Assembly: GCA_049520575.1 (NCBI GenBank)
Contig: JBEKPQ010000003.1
Span: 24,632-88,631 of the forward strand
Reading direction: 5' to 3'
Length of the DNA stretch: 64,000 nt
Origin: Thermodesulfobacteriota bacterium
Lineage (GTDB): Bacteria > Desulfobacterota > RBG-13-43-22
Part shown: piece after piece, positions 22,001 to 47,424 of the stretch
Layout of the letters: each line of letters begins with the position of its first letter
Numbering within the stretch: position 1 is the stretch's first letter
Notes under the pieces: model-generated
Database searches by the model: none
What the model was told of the DNA's origin: nothing
Seen by the model: only the letters and a program-made list of their open reading frames with translations
Program-made: the position numbers and the translations under genes

Positions 22001-22037
22001 TTCCTCCTTGACCCTGTCTATGCCTTATTTTATACTC
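22001..22037 (+). promoter_or_regulatory. Promoter A of the conserved family: TTCCTCCTTGACCC (-35 at 22008-22013), 17 nt spacer, TATACT (22031-22036). Drives the rSAM-GT2-PlsY-rSAM operon.
   Basis: Near-consensus sigma70 hexamers with a 17 nt spacer. Extended motif shared with four other sites in the island. Confidence 0.6.
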
Positions 22038-22066
22038 TTTTCATTCGACGCCCGAAATTGTAAAAA

Positions 22067-23575
22067 ATGGACCTCTTAAAACAGAATAAAATCCTTCTCG
22101 TCCACCCCCTGGGTTACAAGATGGAAAGGGCGGGAAAGGATGTTTCGCGGATAGCTAATATCATGCCCCCGCTGGGCCTGGCTAGCATGGCCGCCTATCT
22201 GAATAAAAAAAATATCGAGGCTGATATCGTTGACTGTTTTGCCAAGCCCTTTTCCGATCGTTTCATCAGGGATTATCTGGGTAAGGAAAAGCCCTCTTTT
22301 ATCGGTCTCAGTTGCACCACCTCGAGCTTCCTCGATGGGGTCCGCATTGCCGAAATGGCAAAAAATACCCTGCCGGGCATAAAGACGGTTTTTGGGGGCC
22401 CCCATGTCTCCGCCCTGAAAACCAAGGTCCTGGCCGATTTCCCGGAAGTGGACTTTGTCGTGGCCGGTGAAGGGGAAGAGACCCTGGCCGAACTTCTGGC
22501 CTGCGACGGAAAGATCAATGAGACGCCCCCGGTCCCCGGTATGGTCTATCGCGATAAAAATGGAATCCCGCACTTTAGCGGCTATCGGGCAAAAGGCATC
22601 GATCTCGACACCCTTCCCTTTCCAGCCTATGAAAAACTTGATGGTTATCCTCAGGCCTACAAACTGCCCATTTTCAACTATCCGACGGTCCCCAATACCA
22701 GCTGTATATCGAGCCGCGGATGCCCTTATGCCTGCAGTTACTGCGACCGGTCGGTTTTTGGGAGCAGTTTCCGTTACAATTCCGCTGAATATCTCTATGA
22801 GCACCTGAAATACCTCCATGACCGTTTTCATATCCGGCACATCAATTTCTATGACGACCAGTTCACCTTCAACCGCAAAAGGATTGAAGCCTTCACTCGG
22901 ATGATGATCGACAAACCCCTCGGGATGACCTTTAACTGTGCCGTGCGGGCCGAACATATCGATCTCGATCTGGCCAGGATGATGAAAGAAGCCGGATGCT
23001 GGATGATCAGCCTCGGTGTGGAGACCGGCGATGAAGACCTCCTGGCCCAACACCGGAAAAACCCAGACCTGAAGATGCTGGCAGAAAAGATCCGGCTGAT
23101 CCATAAAACCAGAATCCGCGTCAAGGGACTGCTCATGCTGGGTCTGCCCGGCGAAACCGACTCGAGCATCCAAAAGAGTATGGATTATGTTTTTTCCTTA
23201 CCCATCGACGATATCAATGTGTCCAAATTCACCCCCTTCCCGGGCACACCCCTCTATGAAAAGGCCCATGAACTGGGGACCTTTGAAGAAGACTGGGAAA
23301 GGATGGACTGCATGCATTTCCTCTTCATCCCCAAGGGGATGACTGGAGAGCATCTGGAAAAACTTTTCGTGAGGTTCTATCGGAAACACTTTATGCGGCC
23401 TAAGATGTTCCTCGGTTATATCGCCATGATTTGGCGTTCTCCCGACAGTTGGAAGAGGTTCCTAACCGATTTCAGAGGTTTTTTCCGGTTTGTCCGGACC
23501 GACACAAGGATTGCAGGTCCGGGAACGGAGCCGAAGGTATCGGGAAAAAAGGCTGCTTCTTTATTGGAAAAATAA
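22067..23575 (+). CDS. B12-binding radical SAM protein (class B rSAM).
   Basis: N-terminal Rossmann-like cobalamin-binding region (ILLVHPLGY...LGLASMAAYL...GLSCTTSSF). rSAM motif CPYACSYC (CX3CX2C). Confidence 0.85.
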   Translation: MDLLKQNKILLVHPLGYKMERAGKDVSRIANIMPPLGLASMAAYLNKKNIEADIVDCFAKPFSDRFIRDYLGKEKPSFIGLSCTTSSFLDGVRIAEMAKNTLPGIKTVFGGPHVSALKTKVLADFPEVDFVVAGEGEETLAELLACDGKINETPPVPGMVYRDKNGIPHFSGYRAKGIDLDTLPFPAYEKLDGYPQAYKLPIFNYPTVPNTSCISSRGCPYACSYCDRSVFGSSFRYNSAEYLYEHLKYLHDRFHIRHINFYDDQFTFNRKRIEAFTRMMIDKPLGMTFNCAVRAEHIDLDLARMMKEAGCWMISLGVETGDEDLLAQHRKNPDLKMLAEKIRLIHKTRIRVKGLLMLGLPGETDSSIQKSMDYVFSLPIDDINVSKFTPFPGTPLYEKAHELGTFEEDWERMDCMHFLFIPKGMTGEHLEKLFVRFYRKHFMRPKMFLGYIAMIWRSPDSWKRFLTDFRGFFRFVRTDTRIAGPGTEPKVSGKKAASLLEK

Positions 23576-23632
23576 CTCTTGGCCGACTCCCCTGAAGAAA
23601 CGTCTTTGCTCCCCAATATCAGAAAAGATACG

Positions 23633-24814
23633 ATGAATGGATCAGAAAGCATGAAGATAAGGCCCCTGATGGTTATCCCCGTTTACAATCACGCCGGAAC
23701 ACTGCGGGATGTGGTTGTCCGAACGCTCAGTGTCTGTAGTGATGTGCTGGTTCTGGATGACGGCAGCACCGACGGAAGCGCAGAAGTTATCAAAGGCCTT
23801 CCCATCCATCTGGTTCGGCATGAGAAAAATAGGGGCAAAGGGGCGGCGATCCTTACAGCGGCCAAGGAAGCCGGAAGGCTCGGGATGACCCATATGATTA
23901 CCCTGGATGCCGATGGGAAGCACGACCCGACCGATTTTTCCAGATTCCTTCCTGTGATTCAGGAAAATCCCCTGGCGATTGTAGTGGGGAAAAGAATCTT
24001 AAAAAACACGAAGATTCCCTTCTCGTCCCGGTTTTATAGACACTTCTCCAACTTCTGGTTCAGGGTTCAAACCGGCAGTTCCCTGAAAGACACCCAATGC
24101 GGCTTTCGGGCCTACCCGGTTGCTGTCTTAACCTGGTTGGAGCTCCACGAAAAAGGCTATTCCTTTGAAGAGGAAGTCCTGGTAAAGGCCGCCTGGGCGG
24201 GAATTCCATTCAAAGAGGTGGAGGTTTCGATAGTCTATCTACCCCCCGGCGAACGCATATCTCATTTCCGCTTTTTCAGGGATACCCTCGCCCGGGCGCT
24301 ACTTAACACGCGTCTGACGATCTGGGCCATTGCTCCCATACCGTCGAGACAATTTATGCCCTTTGAAAACGAACCGGAAAAGATAACCATCCGCCACCCC
24401 TTGCAGTCTTTGAGAATTCTTCTCAGGAGAAAAATCTCACAGTCGCAATTAGCGATTTCAGCCGGTTTTGGGGTGCTTCTCGGTACCCTCCCACTGATCG
24501 GTTTTTGGACTCTGACTATCCTCATTACAGCCAGTTATTTCCGCCTCAACAAATATGTGGCCCTGGTTGCCAGCCAACTGTGTTATCACCCTGTTGTGCC
24601 GGCCCTCTGTATCGAAGCAGGGTATTATATTCGTCACGGGAAGTTCCTCACGGAGATTTCCCTGAACACCCTCGGATATCAGGCCTTGGAAAGGATCTAC
24701 GAGTGGATCATCGGCAGCCTGGTCCTCGGGCCTCTTTTTGGAGTTTTTTTCGGCTGCCTGATCTATGTGATCACCTTTTCCCTAAAAAAGGAGAAGTCCG
24801 TTATTAATGCTTAA
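23633..24814 (+). CDS. Family 2 glycosyltransferase (DPM1-like) fused to a C-terminal DUF2062-like membrane domain. The start is probably the ATG at 23633; the ORF track begins at a TTG at 23579.
   Basis: GT2 motifs VIPVYNH...LDDGSTDGS...TLDADGKHDP. Hydrophobic C-terminal third. Confidence 0.7.
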   Translation: MNGSESMKIRPLMVIPVYNHAGTLRDVVVRTLSVCSDVLVLDDGSTDGSAEVIKGLPIHLVRHEKNRGKGAAILTAAKEAGRLGMTHMITLDADGKHDPTDFSRFLPVIQENPLAIVVGKRILKNTKIPFSSRFYRHFSNFWFRVQTGSSLKDTQCGFRAYPVAVLTWLELHEKGYSFEEEVLVKAAWAGIPFKEVEVSIVYLPPGERISHFRFFRDTLARALLNTRLTIWAIAPIPSRQFMPFENEPEKITIRHPLQSLRILLRRKISQSQLAISAGFGVLLGTLPLIGFWTLTILITASYFRLNKYVALVASQLCYHPVVPALCIEAGYYIRHGKFLTEISLNTLGYQALERIYEWIIGSLVLGPLFGVFFGCLIYVITFSLKKEKSVINA

Positions 24815-24913
24815 AGAAACACGGGCCGTTCAGAAACATCCGGACAGAGACAGCCATAACATCGGCTTAAGCCGGGGACACAAAATCTTCTGTTAGCCGG
24901 AGCGGAGGAATAA

Positions 24914-26784: not shown

Positions 26785-26832
26785 GGCCCTCGCCCATTCC
26801 CAGGTTTTAAAGATGTTTGGTTCCCTTTTAAT

Positions 26833-27696
26833 TCACAACTCCTTAATCCATAGAAGAGGATGGAGGCGGCCCTGGGATATATCCTGCATTTGAATACCCC
26901 GGATTTCCTCACAGACAGCCCCTTGGTCATCGATAATCCAGGCATTAAAAAAAAACTGATTCTTTTCTACTCCCGTCGGAAAAACCCGGCCGGTATATAA
27001 ACCATTTTTTTTGGTTTTCTGATGAATGATCCTTTTTTCAATACCTGTTGGAAATAGGACATACTCAGTAAACCGTTGCCCCCAGATGCAAGCCACCTGA
27101 AGGGCGGCATCCAGAGGAAAGAGAGAACCGAGTCGATCATCCTCTTTTCCGCAGTCACCGCCGGAAAGATAGCCTGAAGCCTCTTCGGGCCAAAGAGAAA
27201 CCGGGCCGATGATATTTTGAAAAGCCTTCCCGAAAGGGATCAGTCCGGGGTAAACTAATTCTTTTGAAACCAAGATATCCGGTCCTTTAGGATTTTCTTT
27301 GTCCGCCAATAGCGGTGAAGCACCTGGAAAAGAATCGGCCTGAGAAAATTCCACCCGGGCATGCTCCAGGTTGCGGCTGATGCCACCGGTTTTTGATCTC
27401 ATCGAAGTCATCAGCCGTGTGGAAATACCCCCCTTGGGGGTTTGATCTATTTCGACGACAACCGGCAGATGGTGCATTTCCGGATGGATTATCAGAAAAC
27501 GGGGAAACCGGGCCTTGGTCAAACAAACCATATCCCAATTGGAAAAATGATCATGAACAACCTTGGCCAGGACATTCAAAGCCTCTGTAGCCGGCAAAAC
27601 ACACCGGCCTTCAAAGTGATGATCCAATAAATAGTCGCCGACTTCGATTTCCAGAGGACAGCGCATTTTTCCATTTAGCCGGGGAAGGATTTCCAA
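26833..27696 (-). CDS. Standalone polyketide-synthase-type dehydratase (PS-DH, double hot-dog). Start uncertain: the ORF overlaps the upstream thioesterase by 22 nt.
   Basis: PKS DH active-site signature LLDHHFEGRCVLPATE (HxxxGxxxxP); ~287 aa. Confidence 0.6.
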   Translation of the reverse strand: MEILPRLNGKMRCPLEIEVGDYLLDHHFEGRCVLPATEALNVLAKVVHDHFSNWDMVCLTKARFPRFLIIHPEMHHLPVVVEIDQTPKGGISTRLMTSMRSKTGGISRNLEHARVEFSQADSFPGASPLLADKENPKGPDILVSKELVYPGLIPFGKAFQNIIGPVSLWPEEASGYLSGGDCGKEDDRLGSLFPLDAALQVACIWGQRFTEYVLFPTGIEKRIIHQKTKKNGLYTGRVFPTGVEKNQFFFNAWIIDDQGAVCEEIRGIQMQDISQGRLHPLLWIKEL

Positions 27697-28160
27697 AGAG
27701 CAATCGTTTGGGGGTCTATGGCCACGGGAAGTCCCTTAGCATTCAGGGCGCAATGTTTGGTATATCCGATGCAAACGATCCGGTCGGTTTCCGCCTGGGT
27801 GATCAGGTAATCAAACTGCAAACGGACCCGTTCCAGGAGAGTCGGCCGGGTGTGGATCAGCATGACATCATCATAATACAAGGGAGAATAATATCCGATC
27901 CTTAAATCGATGATGGGATAAACAAAGCCGCTCGCTTCAATTTCTTTATAGGGATAGCCGAAGTCGCGCATCAAAGAGGTTCGCCCGAATTCAAAAAACC
28001 GCAAGTAATTGGCATGATAAACCACCGCTGAACGGTCCGTATCGGCATATAACGTTCTATAGGTGGAGCGATGCCAGATCAAACCAGTGGAGCGGTCGCG
28101 GATGAAGTTGGGATTGTTATTGAAAGGTTCGGGTCGGAAAGGTTTGGGACGCATCTTCAC
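27675..28160 (-). CDS. 4HBT-fold acyl-CoA/acyl-ACP thioesterase (YbgC-like).
   Basis: YADTDRSAVVYHANYLRFFEFGRTSL matches the 4HBT thioesterase consensus. ATGA overlap with the KS stop indicates translational coupling. Confidence 0.7.
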   Translation of the reverse strand: MKMRPKPFRPEPFNNNPNFIRDRSTGLIWHRSTYRTLYADTDRSAVVYHANYLRFFEFGRTSLMRDFGYPYKEIEASGFVYPIIDLRIGYYSPLYYDDVMLIHTRPTLLERVRLQFDYLITQAETDRIVCIGYTKHCALNAKGLPVAIDPQTIALWKSFPG

Positions 28161-29422
28161 ACCCCCTTGAAAATGATACAGCAGTTCGTCCCTCCAAACC
28201 CAAAGGCATTGGAAAGGGCCAATTCATAATGATGCCGACGGACTTCGTTGGGCACCACATCGATATCCGAAAATTCTGGATCAGGAAGATGATTGATGGT
28301 CGGCAATATACACCCTCTTCCCATGGCTTCGATGGTCAAGGCCGCTTCAATAGCTGCGGTGGCCCCCAAGGTGTGGCCCAATTGGGACTTATTGGAGGAT
28401 ATGGGGATTTTTTCCATGGCCTTGCCGAACACTTCGCGCAGACATTTTATCTCCGTCCGGTCCCCTTTGGGCGTAGACGTACCGTGGGCATTAATATATT
28501 GGATATCTCTCGGTTCCAAGCCTGCATCCTCAATGGTTTCTCTGATGGCCCGGACAATGGTGACGGGGTTGGGACTGGTGTAATGATAAGCGTCCGATGT
28601 CCAGCCCACACCCAAGACCTCGGCCCGGGCTTTGAGACCATAAGCCTTAATGACTTCTTCCGCCGCCAGAACCACTGCGCCCGCTCCTTCGGAAAGGACA
28701 AACCCTTTACGGTCAACACTGAAAGGGCGGGAGGCCTGGGCCGGATCCGTAAAGGCCCTATCTTTTGGGTGGACCTTGATCGTGGCATTCATATTGGCAA
28801 AGCCGTGAATCAATTCCGGAAGGATAGGGGCATCGGCCCCGCCGGCCAACACGAAATCGCAATCCCCGTCCCGGATCATTCTGGCCCCTATGCCGATGGC
28901 GTGGTTCCCCGAGGCGCAGGCCCCTTGGGGGGAAAAGATGGGACCGGTGAATTTTAGGAGCATGCCGGCCTTACCACCAGGTACATTGGCGCATAGATTG
29001 GGCAGCAGATAAGGGCTTACCCGGAGAGGTCCCCGTTGTTCCAGGTCCTGCATGGCAATTCGAAAGGCCTCCGGCCCATTTAAGGCGGAACCGATCAGGC
29101 AGGCCATTCGTGGGGAAATCTGTTCATCCATGGTAATCCCGGCGTTTTGCAGGGCTTCCTGACAGACAGCCATGGTCATGATTACAAAACCGGCGTTCCA
29201 GTTGTACACTTCTTTGGCATCGATATAATCCAGCTCCAAGGGATTCCAGTCCGGGATTTCTCCGACAATGTTGCAGGCCGATTCCACCTGACACCGGGTC
29301 ACCTTCCGGAACCCGGCTTCCCCTTTAACAGCCCGCTTCCAGGTCTTCTCAAAGGTGCTGCCCAGGGGTGTGGCCATCCCGTAACCGACAACAAACACTC
29401 TTCTGTTTTTAGGTGCCTTCAT
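28157..29422 (-). CDS. Beta-ketoacyl-ACP synthase (FabB/FabF-like KS).
   Basis: Active-site Cys in GACASGNHA; His motifs NAHGTSTPKGD and GHTLGATAAIE. Confidence 0.9.
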   Translation of the reverse strand: MKAPKNRRVFVVGYGMATPLGSTFEKTWKRAVKGEAGFRKVTRCQVESACNIVGEIPDWNPLELDYIDAKEVYNWNAGFVIMTMAVCQEALQNAGITMDEQISPRMACLIGSALNGPEAFRIAMQDLEQRGPLRVSPYLLPNLCANVPGGKAGMLLKFTGPIFSPQGACASGNHAIGIGARMIRDGDCDFVLAGGADAPILPELIHGFANMNATIKVHPKDRAFTDPAQASRPFSVDRKGFVLSEGAGAVVLAAEEVIKAYGLKARAEVLGVGWTSDAYHYTSPNPVTIVRAIRETIEDAGLEPRDIQYINAHGTSTPKGDRTEIKCLREVFGKAMEKIPISSNKSQLGHTLGATAAIEAALTIEAMGRGCILPTINHLPDPEFSDIDVVPNEVRRHHYELALSNAFGFGGTNCCIIFKGV

Positions 29423-29494
29423 GGTTCAGTGCACATCCTTTATGACTTTACCAGTTTCAACTATCCGGTGCGAGGATATTTATTCTGGCTTCAA

Positions 29495-30745
29495 TTATAT
29501 CAGCCTGCGTAAAACCAGACAGGCATTGCACCCGCCAAAGCCCAGTGCATTTTTCAAGACAAATTCTCCGCTTAATTTTCTGGCTCCCTCGGCCACACAG
29601 TCCAATTCAACATCCGGATCAGGGAGATAATTAATCGTAGGAAGCAAGGTCTCTTTGAGCAAACCTTCCATGGTGAAAATGGCCTCGATGGCGCTGGAAG
29701 CCCCCATGGCATGGCCCATTTGGGATTTATTGGCCGATACCGGAGGAAGTCGCTTTCCGAAGATATTATGCAGGGCATCAACCTCCACCTTGTCCCCTAC
29801 CTTGGTTGAAGTGGCGTGGGCGTTAATGGCATCGATATCCGAAGGTTTAATCCCGGCCTGGGCAATAGCCAGCTCCATAGACCTTTGAACCGTTTCCAGA
29901 TTGGGGGCAACGAAGTGCTTGGCATCCGAGGTCATTCCAAACCCGGCCAATTCAATGGGCGCTTTAAGTCCATGGGCGGCGGCGAATTCCGCTGAGGCAA
30001 TGATAATACAGGCGGCCCCTTCGGAAACCACGAACCCCCTGCGATTTAAGGAAAAAGGCCGGCTGGTTTTTTCGGGCGGTTCAGGCGGCTGGCCTTCTTT
30101 GGGATGATAAGCGCCGTTCATGGTGGCAAAGCCGGCAACAATCGGTTCAACCAAGGGAAAGTCAACCGCTCCTCCGATGACCACATCAGCCAGACCCTGA
30201 CGCAGGAGCATTGCCCCTGTAATCAATGAGGTGATGCCCGTTGCGCAAGCTGTGATGGTGGAAAAGATGGGTCCGGTGGCCCCGGTGAAAACAGAGACCC
30301 GTCCACCGACCATATTGATGCATGAGTTGGGGTTGGTAAAGGGATGGGGCATTTTCCCTTGGGAGACCATCAGCCGGTCCGCCTCCAACACGGCATCCAG
30401 CCCGCCGATAGCGCTGCTGAAGGTGACGGCCACGCGGGGGGCGATCTCGGGTGTAATCACCAAACCGCTTTTTTGCAGTGCGCGGTGGACGACCAGCAGG
30501 GCGTGGGGGAAAATAGGGGAAGTCCAATGAGCCATTTCCCGGGGCTGCAAAAAAGGAAAAGGTCTGGTATCAAGGGGCGGAACTTCTCCGGCCACTCTAA
30601 CCGGAAAATCGTGGGGCAAGGGAAAACGGGTTAAGGGACCTATCCCCGAGTCCCCGCGAACCGCCTTTTCCCACTGGGTTTCCCATTCCGTACCTAAAGG
30701 GGAAACGGCATCATACCCTAAAATGACTGCTTTTTTTGGTTCCAT
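29495..30745 (-). CDS. Beta-ketoacyl-ACP synthase, second copy with the catalytic Cys retained. Probable start MEPKKAVILGYD.
   Basis: TACATG active-site Cys; NAHATSTKVGD and GHAMGASSAIEA His motifs. Confidence 0.85.
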   Translation of the reverse strand: MEPKKAVILGYDAVSPLGTEWETQWEKAVRGDSGIGPLTRFPLPHDFPVRVAGEVPPLDTRPFPFLQPREMAHWTSPIFPHALLVVHRALQKSGLVITPEIAPRVAVTFSSAIGGLDAVLEADRLMVSQGKMPHPFTNPNSCINMVGGRVSVFTGATGPIFSTITACATGITSLITGAMLLRQGLADVVIGGAVDFPLVEPIVAGFATMNGAYHPKEGQPPEPPEKTSRPFSLNRRGFVVSEGAACIIIASAEFAAAHGLKAPIELAGFGMTSDAKHFVAPNLETVQRSMELAIAQAGIKPSDIDAINAHATSTKVGDKVEVDALHNIFGKRLPPVSANKSQMGHAMGASSAIEAIFTMEGLLKETLLPTINYLPDPDVELDCVAEGARKLSGEFVLKNALGFGGCNACLVLRRLI

Positions 30746-30921
30746 AAAGAGTACCCAGATTAAAAAAACCATTTGAAGAGAGAAAAATCTTTAAATTTAT
30801 GCTCTCGGGATCACCTAATGTTGAGGAGACCAGGACAGCGCTTTTTCTCTTTTCGATTGAATCGATGATGAGATCGGATTTGAATGCCGGAAAAAGCAAA
30901 CTACCGAAGTCCCACCCATAA

Positions 30922-31920
30922 TCACCAGGGGATGAAATGATACAGCTTGGCGAACATTTCATAAACTTCGATCCAGTTCTGCAAATCTTCAGTCGACCGA
31001 ATATGTTCTCTTTTATTGACCATAACCCAGCTCATATGGGCCGCCCCGTCCTTGCAGGTGGAGCAGTCCCGGCTGGCCGAAGTGCAACAGCGGTGGACCG
31101 TCTTTAAATCGGAAGCCCAGCGGATAAAATGAATCAAACGGTGGGGCTGGGGATTCCTATCGTCCAAGGATTCGGTTACAGAGGGACATTCTTTCCAGCC
31201 GAAAGGACGGCCCATCATGGTCCCTGTGGTGATGATTTGATGGTAATATTTGCTGGAAATAACCGTTTGAGGATACCGGTCCAGCATTTCATCTAGTTCG
31301 TGACGCAAGGCCGTTAGCTCTTTTTCCCGCCAGGAAAAACCTTCCACATGCTCGTCGTTTGACAAAAGCTGAAGATGGACCTTCAATCCAATATCGGCGA
31401 TTCTTTTGATGACCGGTTCAATTTTACCCACCTGCCGCGGTGTGATGGTGTACAGATAATAAGTGTAGGGGTCACCGGTATAATGCTTACTGGAAATCGC
31501 AAAGGTGTCTCTCCCCCTTAGAACCTTTTCATCTTCAGGGCTGCCCCAGAGAGAAATCCCGACCATCATATCAGGGAACCGATCCCGGGGCACTTTTATC
31601 AAGCCGTTGGTGGCGCAATAGGTCGGCAGCCGATGATAAAAGGCCTCAGCCCTGTCCAGGAAAAGCGTCGGCTCTCCGCCGATCAATATGGCCAGATTGA
31701 CGCCCCGCTCCTTTTCCCGGTCAATAAAGGCCTCCCACTTTTTTAGATCCATTTCTTCACGGGCCGCCTGGTGTTCGTTGGAGGAAAAGAAAAAACACCC
31801 CTTACAGCGCAAATTGCATTGGTTGGTAACATCATAGATAGAACTGCGAATATTTAATTTGGAAATCCTCCGATAGCGTTCGTACCAGGATGAATCTAAT
31901 AATGAACTGACAGTTTTCAT
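30922..31920 (-). CDS. Radical SAM protein with a SPASM/twitch-like C-terminal Cys cluster. Probable start MKTVSS at 31920; the longer ORF-track form would overlap the upstream paralogue by 100 nt.
   Basis: CNLRCKGC (CX3CX2C), GGEPTL, C-terminal CCTSASRDCSTC. Paralogous to the adjacent gene. Confidence 0.7.
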   Translation of the reverse strand: MKTVSSLLDSSWYERYRRISKLNIRSSIYDVTNQCNLRCKGCFFFSSNEHQAAREEMDLKKWEAFIDREKERGVNLAILIGGEPTLFLDRAEAFYHRLPTYCATNGLIKVPRDRFPDMMVGISLWGSPEDEKVLRGRDTFAISSKHYTGDPYTYYLYTITPRQVGKIEPVIKRIADIGLKVHLQLLSNDEHVEGFSWREKELTALRHELDEMLDRYPQTVISSKYYHQIITTGTMMGRPFGWKECPSVTESLDDRNPQPHRLIHFIRWASDLKTVHRCCTSASRDCSTCKDGAAHMSWVMVNKREHIRSTEDLQNWIEVYEMFAKLYHFIPW

Positions 31921-31973
31921 AAAGTCGTCCCTTAAAATCTTCTTTTTGGTTTTCTGATTTTTCGGTCCGGGGT

Positions 31974-33044
31974 TCAGGTCATCGGGGGGCTGACCGGGGC
32001 CGGACAGAGATTCTCCCCTTTGGGATACCCCATCACCCACACCGCCAGGTACGTATCCACATAATCCAGCCAAGCCTTGAAGGTGTCCAATTGACCGGCA
32101 TGACGAAAAAGACGGGCGGTGACCACAGCTGAACCTGAGGCATAATGCCGGCAGTCGTTACAATCGGTATCCGGCACACAGCAGGCCACCGACCGGTCCC
32201 ATTTTAAATCCGTTCGGTACTGTCGAAAGGACCGTCCCAGGCCAATGTCCTGAGAGGGGTTTTGTCGAGGGTACTGGCAGGCAAAAAGGTCATGCAAACT
32301 GCCGCGGTGGGTATGGGCAACGGCATTATAGGCCGAGAACAAAACCTGCTGAGGATATTTCTCCAGGAGGGCGATCATATTGTTTCTGGTTTGTTCCAGT
32401 GAATCTTCATTATGGCGTAAAGGTCCCTTATAGCCCACCGGGGAGGAAAAAACATTGAAGGTCAACTTACAATCCTCGGCCACGAGGCGTTCGGCCACCT
32501 CCCAGACCTCTCCGATATTGCTCCGGGTGAAGGTATAAACAAAAACGGCCCGCGGGTCATTCCGATAGTTTTCGATTTGTTTTTTTAAAAGATCCTTGGC
32601 TTTCCGCACCCGAAGGCTGGTTTCATCGTTGCCCCAGACGGAAATATGGATTTTATAGCCGACCGATTCCGAAATTTTTTTCAATCCGTTGGTGGCTATG
32701 CTGCCCAGCGGCATTTCCTGAAAACAAACCTCCAACAGTTCCGGAACGAGCGAGGGTTCGGCCCCGGCCAGAACCACATAGGTGATCCCCCGTTTTTTTT
32801 CGGTTTGCATCAGTTCCCGCCAGGCTTCGACCTGATTGTTTTCAACGGCAAATTGTTTTTCCCCCTCATAATAATAACAGCCGTCGCAGCGGAGATTGCA
32901 GCGATTGCTCATGTCATAGGTGGATTCCCGCAGGAAAAAATATTTTCGGACTTTCTCCCACCGCTGTCTGACTTCCGGATGGTCAAGCAGTTCGGAAAAT
33001 TTCGGTTGGTCTGGTTCCAAGGATGGCTGATGATTCATGGTCAT
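31974..33044 (-). CDS. Radical SAM protein with a SPASM/twitch-like C-terminal Cys cluster; paralogue of the previous gene.
   Basis: CNLRCDGC (CX3CX2C), AGAEPSL, C-terminal CCVPDTDCNDC. Confidence 0.75.
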   Translation of the reverse strand: MTMNHQPSLEPDQPKFSELLDHPEVRQRWEKVRKYFFLRESTYDMSNRCNLRCDGCYYYEGEKQFAVENNQVEAWRELMQTEKKRGITYVVLAGAEPSLVPELLEVCFQEMPLGSIATNGLKKISESVGYKIHISVWGNDETSLRVRKAKDLLKKQIENYRNDPRAVFVYTFTRSNIGEVWEVAERLVAEDCKLTFNVFSSPVGYKGPLRHNEDSLEQTRNNMIALLEKYPQQVLFSAYNAVAHTHRGSLHDLFACQYPRQNPSQDIGLGRSFRQYRTDLKWDRSVACCVPDTDCNDCRHYASGSAVVTARLFRHAGQLDTFKAWLDYVDTYLAVWVMGYPKGENLCPAPVSPPMT

Positions 33045-33102
33045 GGCGAATGAGTTCCTCTCAATTGCTCTACCCTAGCATCGAGATCAGGCTGCCGGAT
33101 TC

Positions 33103-33378
33103 TTAACTCCGGGCCTTAACTCTTTCCTCAACATATTCGGCGATCAAGCGAATGGTCTTCAATTTGGGATAATCGTCTTCGTCAATTACAATCTTGTATT
33201 CATCCTGTAAAACCAGAGAGATAGTGGCCAGATCCATACTATCAATTCCCAGTTCATCGATCAGGTCCAAATCAGGATTGAACGTCTCAACCGTTACATC
33301 TTCCAGTTTGAGTTCAAAAATTATTTTTTGGGCTACATTTTCAATAATGCCCTTAATTTCTCCCTTTTCAGGCATCAT
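33103..33378 (-). CDS. Acyl carrier protein.
   Basis: 91 aa; phosphopantetheine attachment motif LGIDSMD. Confidence 0.8.
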   Translation of the reverse strand: MMPEKGEIKGIIENVAQKIIFELKLEDVTVETFNPDLDLIDELGIDSMDLATISLVLQDEYKIVIDEDDYPKLKTIRLIAEYVEERVKARS

Positions 33379-33430
33379 TATCCTCCCTTTTTTATTAGTT
33401 TTCTGATTGGCTTTCCTTAAAGTAAAAGGA

Positions 33431-33466
33431 ATTATAAAATAAAAAGTAAACCGGGGTCAAGGGAAA
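33431..33466 (-). promoter_or_regulatory. Promoter E of the conserved family, on the minus strand. It reads TTTTCCCTTGACCCCGG (-35 at 33455-33460), 18 nt spacer, TATAAT (33431-33436). Drives the ACP-rSAM-rSAM-KS-KS-TE-DH operon.
   Basis: Reverse complement read by hand. The CCTTGACCCCGG block is identical to promoter D. Confidence 0.55.
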
Positions 33467-33489
33467 ATTAGTATATTGTTTGTTCTATA

Positions 33490-33518
33490 TTGACATTACC
33501 CATAGTTATAGATAGAAT
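33490..33518 (+). promoter_or_regulatory. Sigma70-like promoter TTGACA-17-TAGAAT for the dehydratase/ketoreductase operon.
   Basis: Hexamers with a 17 nt spacer about 75 nt upstream of the ATG at 33594. Confidence 0.45.
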
Positions 33519-33593
33519 TTTTCATCTTGATAAAAAGTTTCTCCAAAAGAAAAGATCTTATATTTTAAAACAGATAGTTTGGAAATAGGAAGT

Positions 33594-33986
33594 ATGCCTA
33601 CCCCCCCCGATGATTGGTTGCCTCTGGAGAAACAACGGATCACCCCTGAAGGCCGATGGGAATCGAGGGTGCGATTCGGACCCCAATCGAAGTGGTTCTC
33701 GGGGCATTTTGAAACATTCCCCTTGTTACCCGGCGTGGCCCTCCTCGCCTTGGCTTCTGAAACGCTACAAAGGCAAGCCTTTGAAAATGGTCGGCTTCTC
33801 GATGTGTTAGGCTTTTCCAGAGTAAGATTTAGGCATCTGGTTCTCCCGGGGGATGAACTGTGCATTTCTGTAGCAGCCATGCCCAGCGGTCCTGAGGCTA
33901 AACTCGATTTTCAGATAACCTGTCAGGCCAAACTCGTTGCCCATGGTTTTTTGAAGGCCCGAGAAGAAGGTCCTTTTGAACACTGA
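33594..33986 (+). CDS. FabZ/FabA-like hot-dog dehydratase with its catalytic His (ApeP-like). Start at the ATG 33594, preceded by an AGGAAG RBS.
   Basis: Motif FSGHFETFPLLPGVALLALASE matches the FabZ hFxGHFPxxPvmPGVLxxE signature. Confidence 0.75.
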   Translation: MPTPPDDWLPLEKQRITPEGRWESRVRFGPQSKWFSGHFETFPLLPGVALLALASETLQRQAFENGRLLDVLGFSRVRFRHLVLPGDELCISVAAMPSGPEAKLDFQITCQAKLVAHGFLKAREEGPFEH

Positions 33987-34011
33987 TGACTGATTCGATG
34001 GGATAAAAAAA

Positions 34012-35479: not shown

Positions 35480-35558
35480 ATTTTTTTAAAATTGATCGAT
35501 CTTATTGAAGATCCTTGGTTAAAGAATTGGAAGAAGGAAGCTGTAAGATAACAAAACG

Positions 35559-35825
35559 ATGGATACCATTATGACACGGGAAGAGATAAAGAGTGAAATA
35601 TTAAAAATTCTATTCAGAGAATTTGAAATCGAAAATCCCGACTTGGATGATGATTTAAGAGAGAAGTATGAGTTCGACAGTATCGACGCCATAGAACTTC
35701 TGGTAGCGATTGAACATTTATTAAAAACAGAGCTGACTCAGGAAGAAAAAAAACAGGCCATGGATATTAGGACCATTAACCATATTTGTGATTATGTGGA
35801 AGCTTTGGCTAAAGCCAGGGCCTGA
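35559..35825 (+). CDS. Acyl carrier protein.
   Basis: 88 aa; FDSIDAIEL phosphopantetheinylation motif. Confidence 0.8.
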   Translation: MDTIMTREEIKSEILKILFREFEIENPDLDDDLREKYEFDSIDAIELLVAIEHLLKTELTQEEKKQAMDIRTINHICDYVEALAKARA

Positions 35826-35828
35826 GAT

Positions 35829-37076
35829 GTGAGTCGTTTTATGGAAAGAAGAGTCGTTATTACGGCCTGTTCTGCAATTACCCCTATTGGGCATTCCAAA
35901 AAAGAAATCGTCAATAGCCTGGTTAAGGGAATTTCCGGAGTAAAACCGCTGCGCAAGGATGATCTTCTGACCCGTTATATCCATTCAGGAGTTTTCGGAA
36001 CGGTGGATTATCCGGTTGAGTACGATTTCAAACGTCAACATCGTAAGACCATGGGACCAGTGGCCTATTATGCCTGTCAGGTGGCCAAGGAAGTTATTGA
36101 GGCTTCCGGTTTAGATAATGCGTTTATCACCTCAGGGCGCTTAGGCGTGGCCTTTGGATCAACTCATGGCAGCCCTTCGGTTCAAAGGGAGATTTATAAA
36201 ATCTTTTTCGGAGGCTCGTCTTCTGAATATTCAAACATCGGTGCCGTAGAATACCTGAAATCCATGGTTCATACGACAGCGGTGAATATCACCAAGATGT
36301 TTGGAATTACGGGGCGGGTCATTTCCTCTTCAACGGCCTGCACGACCAGCAGCCAATCCATCGGTTTTGGATATGAATCGATCAAATTTGGGATGCAGGA
36401 CGCCATGCTTTGCGGCGGGGCAGACGAATATGACACCACGACCGTTGCTGTTTTTGATAATCTTTTGGCCTGTTCAACAGCTTTTAATGAAACACCCCAT
36501 CTCACCCCTCGACCGTTTGATTCCAGAAGAGACGGTCTTGTCGTAGGAGAGGGCGCCGGGGCGGTCCTGTTGGAAGAATACGAACATGCCCGGAAACGAG
36601 GGGCAAATATCCTTGGCGAAGTCATCGGGTTTGCTTGTAACAATAACGGCGGCGATTTGATATTGCCCAATCTAAACGGAGTCACCCAGACGCTTCTACT
36701 TGGGCTCGAGAATGCCGGAATTTCTCCGGATCAGATTGATCTTGTGAGCGCTCACGCCACAGCAACCAAAATGGGGGACATTATCGAGGCCCAGGCCATT
36801 CATATGGTCTATGGGAATGCTCCCTGGGTTGTCGGCTTAAAAAGTTATATGGGGCATACCATGGCGACCTGCGGTTCCATTGAAACGATTCTCTGCCTTT
36901 ACATGATGGAAGAAGGATTCATTGCTCCGACTTTGAATCTGGATGAAGTTGATGAACGCTGTGCCATGATTCGGCATGCCCTGAAACTTCAGGAAGGCAA
37001 CATCCGGATTGCTGCCATCCAAAATTTTGCCTTTGGGGGAGTGAATACCTGCCTGATTATCAAAAAATTCGAATAG
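35829..37076 (+). CDS. Beta-ketoacyl-ACP synthase, third KS.
   Basis: STACTTSS active-site Cys region; SAHATATKMGD and GHTMATCGSIE His motifs. Confidence 0.85.
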   Translation: MSRFMERRVVITACSAITPIGHSKKEIVNSLVKGISGVKPLRKDDLLTRYIHSGVFGTVDYPVEYDFKRQHRKTMGPVAYYACQVAKEVIEASGLDNAFITSGRLGVAFGSTHGSPSVQREIYKIFFGGSSSEYSNIGAVEYLKSMVHTTAVNITKMFGITGRVISSSTACTTSSQSIGFGYESIKFGMQDAMLCGGADEYDTTTVAVFDNLLACSTAFNETPHLTPRPFDSRRDGLVVGEGAGAVLLEEYEHARKRGANILGEVIGFACNNNGGDLILPNLNGVTQTLLLGLENAGISPDQIDLVSAHATATKMGDIIEAQAIHMVYGNAPWVVGLKSYMGHTMATCGSIETILCLYMMEEGFIAPTLNLDEVDERCAMIRHALKLQEGNIRIAAIQNFAFGGVNTCLIIKKFE

Positions 37077-37159
37077 ACCAAAACGATAAAAAAGCCGGGG
37101 ATGGCCCAGATCCAAGGCGTCCAGGACGAAGGCCCGTCCCGGCCGGATATCGCGAGCCC

Positions 37160-37927
37160 TTGACCATTCCCCGATGGATTAAAGGTCCGGTTGATCTTTT
37201 GGTCACCCTATTTTTATGGGTCTATTTTACCTTTGGCTATTTCATTTTATTCTCTCCCTTTTATCTCTTTTCCTTCCTGTTCTCTGATAACCTCGAAAAT
37301 TCTTTTCAAAAAATAAATCACCGATTTTTCAAATCGTTTTTTATACTCCTGCGAATCATCACCCCCCGTTTAAACATCCGCATTGACGACGACGTTTGTG
37401 CCATTCGGTCTTCCGTTATTGTCTGTAATCATCTTTCATACCTCGATCCGATCCTTATGGTTTCTTTGTTTGAAAAACAAAAGACGGTCGTTAAAAAAAC
37501 ATTTCTGAAAGTACCCGTTTTCGGATGGGTGTTAAAAAAATCCGGGTATTTATTTTCAACGAAAGAGGAGACTTTTACCGCCCTCATGCTGGAACGTATC
37601 AAGGATATGGAAAATTATCTGTCATCAGGGGGGAATTTATTCGTCTTTCCGGAAGGTACGAGAAGCCGAGACGGGAAGATCGGGCGGTTAAACAAAGGGG
37701 CCTTTACCATTGCCAAGCGATATCATGCTCCGATTCAGGTGTTGATGATCAACCAAACGAATAAGTTATTAAAGCCGGGCAGATCCTTATTAAATACCTG
37801 TGTTCCGATTACGATTGAAGTAAAACGGATTGGAAGCATTCCTCCGGAATACACCAGCGATGGCTTATCGATTCAGAGAGTGATGGAACAGGTCAGGCAG
37901 TTTTTTGAACAGCAGCTCGAGCCATAG
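37160..37927 (+). CDS. PlsC-like lysophospholipid/1-acylglycerol-3-phosphate acyltransferase. Start codon is non-ATG (TTG at 37160); there is no in-frame ATG before the catalytic motif.
   Basis: HX4D motif CNHLSYLD and FPEGTRS block; N-terminal TM segment. Confidence 0.7.
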   Translation: MTIPRWIKGPVDLLVTLFLWVYFTFGYFILFSPFYLFSFLFSDNLENSFQKINHRFFKSFFILLRIITPRLNIRIDDDVCAIRSSVIVCNHLSYLDPILMVSLFEKQKTVVKKTFLKVPVFGWVLKKSGYLFSTKEETFTALMLERIKDMENYLSSGGNLFVFPEGTRSRDGKIGRLNKGAFTIAKRYHAPIQVLMINQTNKLLKPGRSLLNTCVPITIEVKRIGSIPPEYTSDGLSIQRVMEQVRQFFEQQLEP

Positions 37928-37947
37928 TTTTGCCTGCCTATCCGTAT

Positions 37948-37983
37948 TTCTCCTTGACCCTGCCTTTTTCTTGTCCTATACTT
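37948..37983 (+). promoter_or_regulatory. Promoter C of the conserved family: TATTTCTCCTTGACCCTG (-35 at 37954-37959), 17 nt spacer, TATACT (37977-37982). Upstream of the FAD oxidoreductase.
   Basis: Consensus hexamers plus the shared extension. Confidence 0.6.
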
Positions 37984-38126
37984 TTTTTGATCCAAAAGCC
38001 TCTTTGGGGTGCGTCGGGCAAAGCCTGGAAAATCCAGTCGGTTGAAAAGCGAGCCTGAGTTAGCCGACCGTCGGAACCGAGTTTGTTCTAAATGCCGGTA
38101 ACTGCATAGATGAAGCGAAAAATTCA

Positions 38127-39614
38127 ATGCCTACACTTCAACAGGTCCAGGAAAAGGTTCTGATCATCGGCTCGGGTATCGGCGGCCTGAGCACGGGCAT
38201 CATTTTAGCCAAGCTCGGTTTTGATGTCACCGTCATCGAAAAGAATCGACAACCCGGCGGGATGATGCGCAGCTACGCCCGCCGGGGGGTGCAATGCAAC
38301 GTTGGTCTGCATTACCTAGGCGCCCTGGATCAGGGCCAGGTTCTGCGCCGCTGTTTCGATTTTTTGGAAATTTCGGATCGGCTTCCGCTGGTTCGGATGG
38401 GGATCGAGGCGCCGGTGGACCGTTATCTTTTCACCGACAACCATCTTGGCCTCGATCGTTTCGATGTGCCCACCGGTTTTGAGGCTTACCAGGCCGGTCT
38501 GAATGCCGCCTTTCCAACCCAAAAAGCGCAAGTGGCCGCTTTGATGACCCTGCTACGCCGCGGCGCCGACCAATTTGACCGACTGTCTTTTCTATACGCC
38601 GATCAGCCGACTGAATACTGGTTCGATCAAATCGAGCCGCTGGGGGCGATTTTCGACCGTATCGGCTGTTCCCCCGGGCTGAGGGCGGTCTTCGGCCTGC
38701 CGACGGTCTTGATCGGGGTGCCGCCCGCGGTGTGTCCTCAGGTCTATCACACCATGACCCTGGGCAGCTACCTTTTGTCTGCCTGGCGCTTGGAGGGGCA
38801 CGGCGCTACTATGGCCGACGTCTGCGCCCAGCGCCTGGCCTCCTTCGGAGGAGGATTGCGTACCGGAGAGGCGGTAGTCGGCATTCGAACGGCCGACGGC
38901 TGCGTGCGGGGTGTCACCCTGGATTCGGGTGAAACCCTTGACGCCGCCATCGTCATCAGCACCATCCACCCCAAGAGGATGATCGAGTTACTGAAGCCCG
39001 ACGCCGTTAAAGCCTCCTATCGTCGGCGGATCATGGGGTTAAAGGATACCGCCGGCATGATGGCGGTGCACGCCCTGGTGCCGGCTGACCGGCACCCCGT
39101 AATTTCACACAACCTGTTCGTGGTGCAGGCCGATTCCAACGGCGACGTCCGGGACCTGATCTTTCTGCAATTGCGCTCCAGCGGCGCACCGGGGCAGAAC
39201 CTGCTGACAATGATCACCTCCGGCCATGATGAACTATGGCTGGCCTGGCAGCAGACCCGCTCCGGCCAGCGCGGTCCGGATTATCTCAAAAAGAAGCAGG
39301 ATCTGGCTCATGAAATCATTAGAAAAACAGAAAAGATAATGGGTCCCTTCCATGGGCTGGAGATCCTCGACGTCTTTACACCTTTAACCATCCGGGATTG
39401 GGTCAACAGCCCCCAAGGATCGGCCTACGGTGTAATGCGATCAAACGACCAAATGCTTTCAGCCGCATTGTTGAATCGTACGTCATTGCGAGGCCTCTTT
39501 TTGGCCGGCCAGAGCGTATTGTCCCCAGGTATTTTGGGCACAATTTTAGGTTCTTTCTCAACCGTGAAATTTATCGTGGGTTCAGAGCGGTTCGAGCGAG
39601 AGGTTCGAATATAG
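38127..39614 (+). CDS. FAD/NAD(P)-binding oxidoreductase of the phytoene-desaturase (CrtI/CrtD-like) family.
   Basis: N-terminal dinucleotide-binding VLIIGSGIGGLSTGIILAKLGFDVTVIEK...PGG; ~495 aa, typical for CrtI-like enzymes. Confidence 0.75.
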   Translation: MPTLQQVQEKVLIIGSGIGGLSTGIILAKLGFDVTVIEKNRQPGGMMRSYARRGVQCNVGLHYLGALDQGQVLRRCFDFLEISDRLPLVRMGIEAPVDRYLFTDNHLGLDRFDVPTGFEAYQAGLNAAFPTQKAQVAALMTLLRRGADQFDRLSFLYADQPTEYWFDQIEPLGAIFDRIGCSPGLRAVFGLPTVLIGVPPAVCPQVYHTMTLGSYLLSAWRLEGHGATMADVCAQRLASFGGGLRTGEAVVGIRTADGCVRGVTLDSGETLDAAIVISTIHPKRMIELLKPDAVKASYRRRIMGLKDTAGMMAVHALVPADRHPVISHNLFVVQADSNGDVRDLIFLQLRSSGAPGQNLLTMITSGHDELWLAWQQTRSGQRGPDYLKKKQDLAHEIIRKTEKIMGPFHGLEILDVFTPLTIRDWVNSPQGSAYGVMRSNDQMLSAALLNRTSLRGLFLAGQSVLSPGILGTILGSFSTVKFIVGSERFEREVRI

Positions 39615-39783
39615 TCTCTTAGGTGAAGTCGTATCCAATGCCGTCAACTTTAGTCCTTTCCTATGGTTTTCGGTAAAAATCAGGAAACACCTTTTAAGTC
39701 GCCTTTCTAATGTCCAAATGTCCCAATCGGTTTGCCTTCCTAATCTGAGTATAGGCATCCTGACTATGTATTATTTAGTGCGA

Positions 39784-39935
39784 AAATAGAGTTCGAGATT
39801 AAAACATCTATCGTCCATATTTTCATGATCGGTGGTGTCACGCCCCTGGCGAGGCATGATGGTTTAAACGAAAATAGGGATCGAGATTAAACCTTCAACT
39901 AACCCTTTTTTCATGATTGGCGGGGCGTGACGGCG
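39784..39935. repeat. Two tandem ~60 nt units (GAAAATAGrGwTCGAGATTAAAmC...TTTCATGATyGGyGG...), with the inverted elements GTCACGCCCC and GGGGCGTGAC at the unit ends. Candidate structured leader/regulatory RNA upstream of the ACP-like, ACP and acyl-CoA synthetase genes.
   Basis: Direct and inverted repeats read from the sequence; no long ORF. Confidence 0.4.
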
Positions 39936-39949
39936 TATCATGAAAAAAA

Positions 39950-40165
39950 TTGATAAAACGAATTGAATTTAGTATAAGAAAAAATATCGATAACCCCTTG
40001 AATCCTATTTTCATAGTAATAAAAAATCCTCGGCTAAAAAACCGATGGATGAATGGGACGGCTCATCTTTTTATAGACCATGAGCTGGACAGCATTGATG
40101 CTTTGGATTGGTTCGCTGCGAATGATAGATTGGCCTTTTTCAGCAACCTGTTAAGGGAAAAATGA
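39950..40165 (+). CDS. Possible short ACP-like protein (71 aa), translationally coupled to the downstream ACP by an ATGA overlap. AT-rich.
   Basis: Contains LDSIDALD, resembling an ACP Ser-attachment motif. Its C-terminus overlaps a 23 nt sequence repeated at 4513-4535, which lowers confidence. Confidence 0.3.
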   Translation: MIKRIEFSIRKNIDNPLNPIFIVIKNPRLKNRWMNGTAHLFIDHELDSIDALDWFAANDRLAFFSNLLREK

Positions 40166-43049: not shown

Positions 43050-43055
43050 AATAAG

Positions 43056-46244: not shown

Positions 46245-46388
46245 GCAATAATTTCGCCTTCGGCGGGGTCAACACTTCATTAGTCCTCAGTTTGGTCTGA
46301 GACATATCAAGCTTCTGTCCAAATCCTTCACACCTTTGCTCTTTCATTGTTGATGGACGCGAAAAAAGTCGCCGAAATCCGAATTAAG

Positions 46389-46425
46389 TCATTCCGGTCC
46401 CGCACTTGATGCGGGACCGGAATGA
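46389..46425. promoter_or_regulatory. Perfect 16 bp inverted repeat TCATTCCGGTCCCGCA-CTTGA-TGCGGGACCGGAATGA between convergent genes. It is a likely bidirectional terminator, or a regulator site. Its core TCCCGCACYTGATGCGGGACC also occurs at 21937-21957.
   Basis: Read from the sequence; a T-tract follows on the plus strand. Confidence 0.5.
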
Positions 46426-46473
46426 CAGACATAGTGACTTTTTCCGAGTTCGTCATTTAAGTTATAAATTTAA

Positions 46474-47283
46474 TCAACCGGTAGGCTCCAGGCCTTTGCC
46501 CTGCAGGACCCCGCCGTCGATCACAATTTCAGCCCCGGTAGTATAGCTGGAAGCATCGGAAGCCAAGTAAATCGCCGCACCGACTATATCGTCGGGTTGG
46601 CCGATCCGTCCCATGGGGGTCATGTTGGCCATGGCTTCCTGTCCCTTTTTAGCCTCTTCTGGAGGGAGGTGGAACCAATGGGAATTCAACATCTTGGTGC
46701 TTATCGGTCCTGGTGCGATGGCATTCACCTGAATATTAAAAGGGGCCAATTCTAAGGCGAAGGCCTTGGTTATCATTCGGACACCGGCCTTGGAAATACT
46801 ATAAACACTAACATTGCGTTCCGGGCTGAAGCCGTCAATGGAAGCGAAGTTGATAATTTTCCCACCTCCTTGCTTTTTCATCACTTTGGCAACAGCCTGG
46901 CTGGTGAAATAGAGCCCCTTCATGTTCAGGTTCATAATGGTGTCCCAGAGGCGTTCATCGGTTTCCAAAACGCTGCCCATGGCCGGGCTGGCCCCGGCAT
47001 TATTGACCAGGATATCAATTTTCCCAAACTTACCCATCACGGCATCGACCATTTTATTGATTTCTTCCATCTTGCCCAGATGGGCCTGGATAGGGAAGGC
47101 CTCTCCGCCAAAGGCCTTAATTTCTGCAGCGGTTGCTTCCAAATCGTTAATTTTGCGGCTGGTGATTACCACCCTGGCCCCGGCCTTGGCAAACCCCAGG
47201 GCAATTGCTTTGCCGATACCGCGACTGCCGCCGGTCACAATTGCGGTTTTACCCCTTAATGAAAACTTGGATAGATCAAACAT
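46474..47283 (-). CDS. Short-chain dehydrogenase/reductase (FabG-like).
   Basis: TGGSRGIGKAIA, NNAG, and YSISKAG catalytic triad region. Confidence 0.85.
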   Translation of the reverse strand: MFDLSKFSLRGKTAIVTGGSRGIGKAIALGFAKAGARVVITSRKINDLEATAAEIKAFGGEAFPIQAHLGKMEEINKMVDAVMGKFGKIDILVNNAGASPAMGSVLETDERLWDTIMNLNMKGLYFTSQAVAKVMKKQGGGKIINFASIDGFSPERNVSVYSISKAGVRMITKAFALELAPFNIQVNAIAPGPISTKMLNSHWFHLPPEEAKKGQEAMANMTPMGRIGQPDDIVGAAIYLASDASSYTTGAEIVIDGGVLQGKGLEPTG

Positions 47284-47387
47284 GATTAAACCTCCATAAA
47301 TTTATTAAACTCATTTGACAATATTAATTCCTGAAAGAAAATTATCAAGCAGAAAGTTTGAAATACTACAATAAATCAGTCCCGTTA

Positions 47388-47424
47388 TTCTCCTTGACCC
47401 CGGTGTCCTTCTTAATTTATACTC
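47388..47424 (+). promoter_or_regulatory. Promoter D of the conserved family: TTATTCTCCTTGACCCCGG (-35 at 47394-47399), 18 nt spacer, TATACT (47418-47423). Upstream of the second SDR.
   Basis: Consensus hexamers; the CCTTGACCCCGG block is identical to promoter E. Confidence 0.6.

Follow-up and report, generated by a model that had tools for sequence, protein, structure and literature searches.

A 64,000-nt stretch of genome from an uncultivated Thermodesulfobacteriota bacterium occurring in peat and sediment metagenomes (the window; 48.9% GC) contains, between 22 and 48 kb, a lipid or polyene-type biosynthetic island recognized by its Pfam domains, and within this island the same promoter-like element is found five times upstream of genes. 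We propose that these five elements are probably housekeeping sigma70/RpoD-type promoters, that they belong to a stereotyped class found repeatedly within this Thermodesulfobacteriota lineage, and that the similarity extending beyond their hexamers would belong to the class and not to the island. An earlier analysis of the same DNA (the sequence-only reading) had taken the conservation outside the hexamers as a sign of a shared binding site for an activator or repressor; the same architecture also stands ahead of genes unrelated to the island, both in this genome and in others, which weighs against that inference.

Five near-identical elements in the island

The five elements were located, at the places claimed for them by the sequence-only reading, both by reading the sequence and by a strict scan.

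22002–22036, plus strand: promoter A, TCCTCC-TTGACC-C, 17-nt spacer, TATACT; 10 of 12 hexamer positions
33431–33466, minus strand: promoter B, TTTCCC-TTGACC-C, 18-nt spacer, TATAAT; 11 of 12 hexamer positions
35444–35478, plus strand: promoter C, TTCTCC-TTGACC-C, 17-nt spacer, TATAAT; 11 of 12 hexamer positions
37948–37982, plus strand: promoter D, TTCTCC-TTGACC-C, 17-nt spacer, TATACT
47388–47423, plus strand: promoter E, TTCTCC-TTGACC-C, 18-nt spacer, TATACT; 10 of 12 hexamer positions

The strict pattern was TYYYCCTTGACCC-N16-TATAMT (17-nt spacer) or TYYYCCTTGACCC-N17-TATAMT (18-nt spacer). In the window the first version matches A, C and D and the second matches B and E, while 100 dinucleotide-preserving shuffles of the window gave 0.00 matches of either. 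The 9-mer CCTTGACCC was observed eight times in the window against 0.88 expected. Its three extra copies are not at promoters: those at 5896 and 41107 are intragenic, within coding sequence, and the one at 6426 is explained by its position inside a repeated hairpin element of the GGATTCAAGG type. A chance origin of the five sites was ruled out by the shuffles together with the 9-mer excess.

All five sites share one layout, in which a T-rich run is followed by YYCC, TTGACC, a C, a pyrimidine-rich spacer and either TATAAT (B and C) or TATACT (A, D and E). Two details reported previously had to be amended. A YTY said to precede CCTTGACCC does not extend to copy A, which has CCT, and the identical 12-mer assigned to D and E, CCTTGACCCCGG, is instead common to the second and fifth copies (33451–33462 on the minus strand; 47392–47403). 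Local alignment gave 88% identity over 34 nt between C and D and 87% over 30 nt between B and E; ungapped, C and D are 83% identical over 47 nt and A and D 76% over 51 nt.

The hexamers are close to the sigma70 consensus, as had been proposed, and the five sites are among the best matches in the island to a plain sigma70 scan (10–11 of 12 hexamer positions). They have the corresponding spacer of 17 ± 1 nt and face a gene from 30–145 nt upstream, the distance from the -10 hexamer to the same-strand start codon being 30 nt for A, 52 nt for B, 80 nt for C, 144 nt for D and ~43 nt for E. None of the five has a TG extended -10 (TG at -15/-14), and no A/T-rich UP element was found at -40 to -60; the conserved part is T/C-rich, and conservation ends ~12 nt upstream of the TYYY block.

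The proposal that the five sites serve five separate transcription units is not clearly borne out at D. This promoter starts 20 nt past the stop codon of the preceding acyltransferase gene and no terminator-like site was found between the two; because of this, D would be a promoter lying within the C operon, internal or secondary to it.

The same architecture at unrelated genes

Scanning metagenomes with the strict pattern returned at least 121 matches at at least 120 loci (loci are given L numbers below), counts that cover a minority of the samples in which the window's organism occurs and are not genome-wide frequencies. As an off-spacing control, CCTTGACCC with 14 N (15-nt spacer) gave 26 scattered single matches in the genome collection. 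The matches listed, to which the comparisons between promoter types and the downstream genes below refer, comprise 91 distinct sites, 50 of TATACT type and 41 of TATAAT type; one locus, L087, is the orthologue of promoter A.

The genes behind these sites are functionally unrelated. Among the proteins encoded are an LsrF-like aldolase and a thiolase (each in three organisms), PurL, an MTA-phosphorylase-like protein, an RRM protein, LysR and PAS-LuxR regulators, Fic, DUF488, a LarA-like protein, an aldo/keto reductase and metallo-beta-lactamase-fold proteins. Source names were obtained for three of nine looked-up protein clusters, namely Deltaproteobacteria bacterium RBG_13_43_22, Desulfatiglandaceae and Thermodesulfobacteriota; the contigs of L134 and L152 share intergenic repeat families with the window. 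At L111:858-892, from a distant organism of 59% GC, the strict motif stands ahead of an operon with an LpxL-like acyltransferase and a B12-radical SAM (B12-rSAM)-like protein. These proteins are 23–32% identical to those of the window, and none of the other foreign matches listed precedes a lipid-related gene.

Spacer comparisons point the same way. When the sites with a 17-nt spacer (A, C and D) were compared, the spacer of A was identical to that of L134 at 14 of 16 positions and to those of C and D at no more than 9 of 16, and the spacer of D was identical to that of a PurL promoter (L115) at 12 of 16, the same value as for D against C. Since the spacers are closer, or as close, to foreign promoters as to each other, their similarity is not island-specific.

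The class is also present elsewhere in the genome from which the window derives. Contig L160 is 99.99% identical to window positions 50269–64000 and extends 8.9 kb further. It carries, ~7.2 kb past the right end of the window, a sixth copy (L160:20969; L160:20969-21060 with its leader) that reads TTCTCCTTGACCg-N16-TATAgT, then cttcccttAAAAAGtaAGTTCTTCAAAT, and lies 55 nt upstream of an amidohydrolase gene. Homologues of this gene are at most 70% identical, apart from one relative at 93%, and those with a source name belong to other phyla, so that the gene looks horizontally acquired. In the 93% relative (L163, 9908–10000) the amidohydrolase promoter is kept with the full leader consensus and the neighbouring genes differ. 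The 5.1 kb of same-genome DNA to the left of the window, reached via the lepA fragment, contains no site, and a look-up with window 2080–3738 for further same-genome DNA gave no match. A genome-wide motif search, suggested by the sequence-only reading, could thus be carried out over 78 kb of the genome, and it returned the five island sites and the one relaxed site at the amidohydrolase gene.

A conserved predicted transcript start and the question of a global factor

Beyond the strict pattern, and in common with sites of the window, TATACT sites have a T-run, often a G eight bases ahead of the core, and a C after the -10 hexamer; their spacer is 71% pyrimidine and often ends in CTTATTT. In many members the predicted transcript start is conserved as well, from ~+1 to +35, and consists of CCATCAAAAG (~+1 to +15), 4–5 nt and then TTCTTATCA. 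Loci with this leader include L103, L116, L071, L076, L096 and L134. Compared with CCATCAAAAG, promoter E of the window has TATACTcgctCCATCCAAAAG and promoter D has TATACTttttttgATCCAAAAG.

Enrichment was tested for features outside the search pattern by comparing the TATACT-type with the TATAAT-type matches. AAAG at +7 to +22 was found at 23 of 50 TATACT sites versus 6 of 41 TATAAT sites (p = 0.0016), TCTTnTC or TTCTT further downstream at 14 of 50 versus 0 of 41 (p = 0.0002), and a TTATTT-like spacer end at 12 of 50 versus 1 of 41 (p = 0.005). A search of all lineage loci with AAAR-N3-6-YTCTTRTC had the L163 amidohydrolase promoter as its sole promoter-associated match; the two other matches (window ~35400, minus strand; L164 ~11937) are not behind a class promoter. 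Rfam gave no match in ten family loci and none in the window, and the leader of D, compared with shuffles, was not unusually structured (z = +0.62).

Such features could indicate that the class is defined by a global factor, be it a lineage-wide transcription factor, a specialised sigma factor or an RNA-binding protein acting at the transcript 5′ end, in which case the island would be one part of a broad regulon that includes the aldolase, thiolase and purL genes. Two conserved features, CTTATTT at the end of the spacer and CCATCAAAAG-N4-5-TTCTTATCA in the transcribed part, go beyond the usual sigma70 contacts, the class appears to make up a minority of promoters, and the LsrF-like aldolase gene bears a class promoter in three different organisms. 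However, hexamers and spacing are those of canonical sigma70, the downstream genes share no function, the five window sites lack most of the leader motif (partial matches occur in C, D and E only), and no candidate factor was identified. We consider a global factor rather unlikely.

A broader proposal, to which we give slightly more weight and which we advance tentatively, is that the ~80-bp module running from the T-run/YYCC-TTGACC-C to TTCTTATCA is a distinct lineage-wide cis-regulatory unit of Thermodesulfobacteriota, either read by a dedicated global factor or serving as a plug-in promoter, recruited time and again to activate genes that have been rearranged or recently acquired. Candidates for the latter role may be the island, the insertion that carries D, and the amidohydrolase gene.

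A proposed island-specific operator

The alternative put forward by the sequence-only reading is that the -35 flanks (TCTCC on the upstream side; CCCCGG or CCCTG on the downstream side) are the binding site of a dedicated activator or repressor, which would unite the rSAM, ketosynthase (KS)/acyl carrier protein (ACP), desaturase and short-chain dehydrogenase/reductase (SDR) operons in one island regulon. The distribution of the sites gives this idea its strength: all five lie within 25 kb and in front of operons of the lipid island, the expectation being 0, and the class is enriched in the island relative to its surroundings. Moreover, the 13-nt -35 block is invariant in three orthologues of promoter A, one of which, in L009, has neighbouring intergenic DNA that cannot be aligned.

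Against it stands the recurrence of the same flanks, of the spacer consensus and even of the leader at unrelated genes. An operator of this kind would be restricted to functionally linked genes, and the motif is found at the amidohydrolase gene in this genome and at aldolase, thiolase, purL, RRM, LysR, Fic and further genes elsewhere. Inspection of the aligned sites revealed no dyad or clear direct-repeat symmetry (TYYYCCTTGACCC is not self-complementary and there is a weak recurrence of YCTTR; no formal repeat search was made). A cognate regulator, which had been anticipated, was not found in or beside the island: by Pfam, no open reading frame (ORF) between 22 and 48 kb has a DNA-binding/helix-turn-helix (HTH) domain or encodes a regulator, and the closest HTH gene, on L160, is at a distance of ~25 kb. 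Five operons of the island are without the motif, a promoter of this type is missing from the more distantly related clusters (L010, L158 and L165), and in L157 the orthologous promoter B has other bases at flanking C positions. We therefore regard an island-specific regulator as very improbable and as the least likely of the readings weighed here. Of the proposed co-regulation, one part stands: a single promoter class at several island operons makes similar expression plausible. A dedicated regulon does not follow, because the class is present at unrelated genes.

The housekeeping sigma70-type class that we favour also fits sites that have no symmetry, no UP element and no TG extended -10, in an island where no regulator gene was found. 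A typical member would comprise a T-run and then YYCC ahead of the -35, a C after it, a pyrimidine-rich spacer often ending in CTTATTT, usually TATACT, and in many cases a conserved transcript start. RNA polymerase holoenzyme would initiate ~7 nt past the -10 hexamer, probably strongly, and would do so without a dedicated regulator. The island's operons may share the class because they need high expression, because such promoters are repeatedly recruited ahead of newly assembled or acquired genes, or both.

Conservation of promoters in relatives and probable gains

The closest relative, judged by its B12-rSAM protein (92%), is L008, on a 1.15-Mb contig; the corresponding protein of L009 is at 84%. 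Promoter A is kept in both and in L087. In all three the 13-nt -35 block and the -10 hexamer are unchanged, and spacer and leader are variable. The alignable DNA of L009 begins at window position 21999, which is the left edge of the promoter A motif. Orthologues of promoter B are present in L157 and L159; across the orthologues its flanks read CCC-TTGACC-C, CTC-TTGACC-T (L157) and CCC-TTGACC-C, and three of seven flank positions vary, which suggests a pyrimidine preference and not a base-specific operator. Promoter C is identical in L157, and L158 and L159 lack it at the corresponding place. For promoter E, the DNA of L008 ends just before the equivalent position.

In L157, L158 and L159 the intergenic region orthologous to that of promoter D does not contain this promoter. 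In the window, D lies in the following block:

37928–38112, plus strand: D-bearing intergenic block of ~185 nt with leader, present in the window lineage only (blastn breakpoints 37923 and 38113)

The block forms the junction between island DNA that is 93% identical to L157 and a desaturase gene that is 84% identical. Because it is missing from three orthologous loci, D appears to be a recent gain in the lineage of the window, at a recombination junction. According to the favoured reading, copies of the class would have been gained at new positions in this way, with D (lineage-specific), C (shared with L157 only) and the copy at the amidohydrolase gene as examples.

Gains of this kind are also what would be expected if common descent alone accounted for the similarity, that is, if one promoter had propagated within the genome and the shared spacer and flank bases were neutral leftovers. 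The ~185-nt D block, the resemblance of C to D and of B to E in local alignment, and a pair of promoters 4.8 kb apart in L103 with identical -10 hexamer and leader are all consistent with propagation, and large promoter-repeat families are known in Desulfobacterota (PMC3488235). Set against this, the consensus is kept across organisms of 40–59% GC and at orthologous promoters whose neighbouring DNA has diverged, and its retention between organisms argues for selection on a functional consensus and not only for recent copying. The window pairs fall short of the 50 nt at 80% identity that the published definition requires as a minimum, no terminal repeats or target duplications were found, and conservation stops ~12 nt upstream of the motif. 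Propagation alone is an improbable explanation.

Window 26786–40151, a 13.4-kb segment with the KS pairs, rSAMs, ACPs, ApeI/ApeP-like genes, FabG, acyltransferase and desaturase-like gene that also holds B, C and D, is absent from L008. L157 has at least 28106–37923 of this segment at 93% nucleotide identity in another genomic context; the L157 stretch compared ends at that point. The 13.4-kb segment would behave as a transferable or recombining module.

Several observations weigh against a housekeeping class as the full explanation. In the 78 kb of the same genome there is a single copy outside the island, which departs from the strict pattern at two positions. Some 100 kb of relatives' DNA around the island has only the orthologues of A, B and C, and the window's other putative promoters are of a plain TTGACA type with A/T-rich surroundings. 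Contigs bearing the class seldom have a further site (3 in 228 kb), from which the class would be a minority of promoters, perhaps roughly one per 50–100 kb. The island, with 5 sites in 25 kb, would then be enriched about ten-fold, which a class-specific factor could explain too. Finally, the metagenome matches would be linked to the organism of the window at the level of the phylum only. Because the island is still enriched for the class, coordinated high expression of its operons is plausible.

Operons of the island and their promoters

The gene content of the island comprises KS pairs, three ACPs, ApeI/ApeP-like dehydratases, FabG-like SDRs, 4HBT thioesterase, GT2-DUF2062, LPLAT acyltransferases, radical SAM enzymes and a phytoene-desaturase-like oxidoreductase. 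About half of its operons have the element, and the remaining five have ordinary promoter-like sites. The first genes behind A to E encode a B12-rSAM, an ACP, an ACP, the desaturase-like protein and an SDR, of which only the two ACPs are mutually homologous.

From 22067, plus strand: B12-radical SAM (ATG 22067), GT2-DUF2062, PlsY, B12-rSAM-like; promoter A
From 33378, minus strand: ACP (33378–33103), two radical SAM, two ketosynthases, 4HBT thioesterase, PS-DH-like; promoter B
From 33579, plus strand: ApeI-like and ApeP-like dehydratases, FabG; TTGACA-N17-TAGAAT at 33490
From 35559, plus strand: ACP, ketosynthase, acyltransferase; promoter C
From 38127, plus strand: phytoene-desaturase-like oxidoreductase; promoter D
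From 40162, plus strand: ACP, AMP-ligase, LpxL-like acyltransferase, FakA/DegV fusion; weak TTGATA-TATAAG
From 45576, minus strand: phosphopantetheinyl transferase (PPTase); TTGACT-TATTAT
From 45798, plus strand: 4HBT thioesterase; TTGACA-TACAAA
From 47283, minus strand: SDR; weak TTGATA-N16-TAATAT at 47348
From 47467, plus strand: SDR (FabG-like, ATG 47467), divergent from the second SDR gene; promoter E

Two further repeats were seen among these operons. A 29-nt element with the perfect hairpin TCCCGCA-N5-TGCGGGA has two copies. One, at 21937–21965, is situated between the divergent hcp and rSAM genes and 36 nt upstream of promoter A; the other, at 46398–46426, separates the 4HBT and SDR genes, which are convergent. 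This 29-nt element could be either a palindrome bound by a protein or a repeated hairpin element. A tandem 55-nt direct repeat (39781–39835 and 39869–39923; 76% identical, 88 nt apart) lies at the island junction, upstream of the ACP/AMP-ligase operon.

Other features of the window

The lepA gene, encoding a translation GTPase, is split by one in-frame TAG at 4853–4855 on the minus strand (ORFs 4856–6328 and 4532–4852; ...DILVNS*KVDAL...). The same TAG is present on an independent JGI contig, L164, and could reflect a pseudogene, read-through or recoding. A repeated intergenic element at 6347–6446, 52176–52205 and 55516–55615 consists of 8-nt GGATTCAAGG-like periods followed by their complement, giving a long hairpin; similar GGATTCAAGG-type copies occur in L152 and L158. 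A second intergenic repeat family is found at 4389–4535 and 40126–40154, where the 29-mer TAGAnnGGCCTTTTTCAGCAACCTGTTAA is 93% identical at both places, and the longer element at 4389–4535 has relatives in L008, L157 and L134.

Implications and comparison with known systems

The five sites provide credible operon starts for an unusual lipid or polyene-type island, and they also mark its recently assembled parts. They illustrate, too, that conservation outside the hexamers within one window is insufficient for inferring a dedicated regulator; the comparison needs unrelated genes of the same lineage. Taken by themselves, the sites would be further strong sigma70-type promoters, of a known kind, and the stereotyped promoter-leader module would be the more interesting lead. 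A literature search for the motif and for promoter maps in Desulfobacterota found nothing specific. If the module is a true lineage-wide class, it would offer a handle for predicting highly expressed genes and for building expression tools in Desulfobacterota.

The canonical sigma70 (RpoD) promoter, as in E. coli and B. subtilis, is TTGACA-N17-TATAAT. The window sites resemble it at five of six positions of the -35 and five or six of six of the -10, in their 17–18-nt spacing and in their A/T- or pyrimidine-rich discriminator. Unlike it, they always have C as the sixth -35 base and constrained flanks of six bases upstream and one downstream (TYYYCC...C), and their class has a pyrimidine-rich spacer with a recurrent CTTATTT end, a preference for TATACT, and no TG extended -10 or UP element.

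A common promoter sequence at several lipid operons also recalls the regulons of FapR (Bacillus), FabT (streptococci), FadR/FabR (E. coli) and DesT (Pseudomonas). In those regulons the operator is an inverted repeat recognised by an HTH protein, the gene for which usually lies within or close to the regulon, and the operator is confined to lipid genes. In contrast to FapR-type regulons, the window motif has no symmetry, no regulator gene in the island, and occurrences at non-lipid genes. Aryl-polyene-like or 'ladderane-type' type II fatty acid synthase (FAS-II) clusters, with their ApeI/ApeP Pfam families, resemble the genes of the island and not its promoters.

The remaining parallel is with the Putative Mobile Promoters of Matus-Garcia, Nijveen and van Passel (2012), defined by alignments of at least 50 nt at at least 80% identity, the largest family of which has 93 copies in Desulfurivibrio alkaliphilus; families in Desulfobacterota include those of Desulfurivibrio and Geobacter (PMC3488235). 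In both cases similar promoters stand ahead of non-homologous genes and copies are gained at new positions. The window copies were rejected as members of such a family, being below its length and identity thresholds (PMC3488235), and, unlike Putative Mobile Promoters, the promoter family described here is conserved between organisms.

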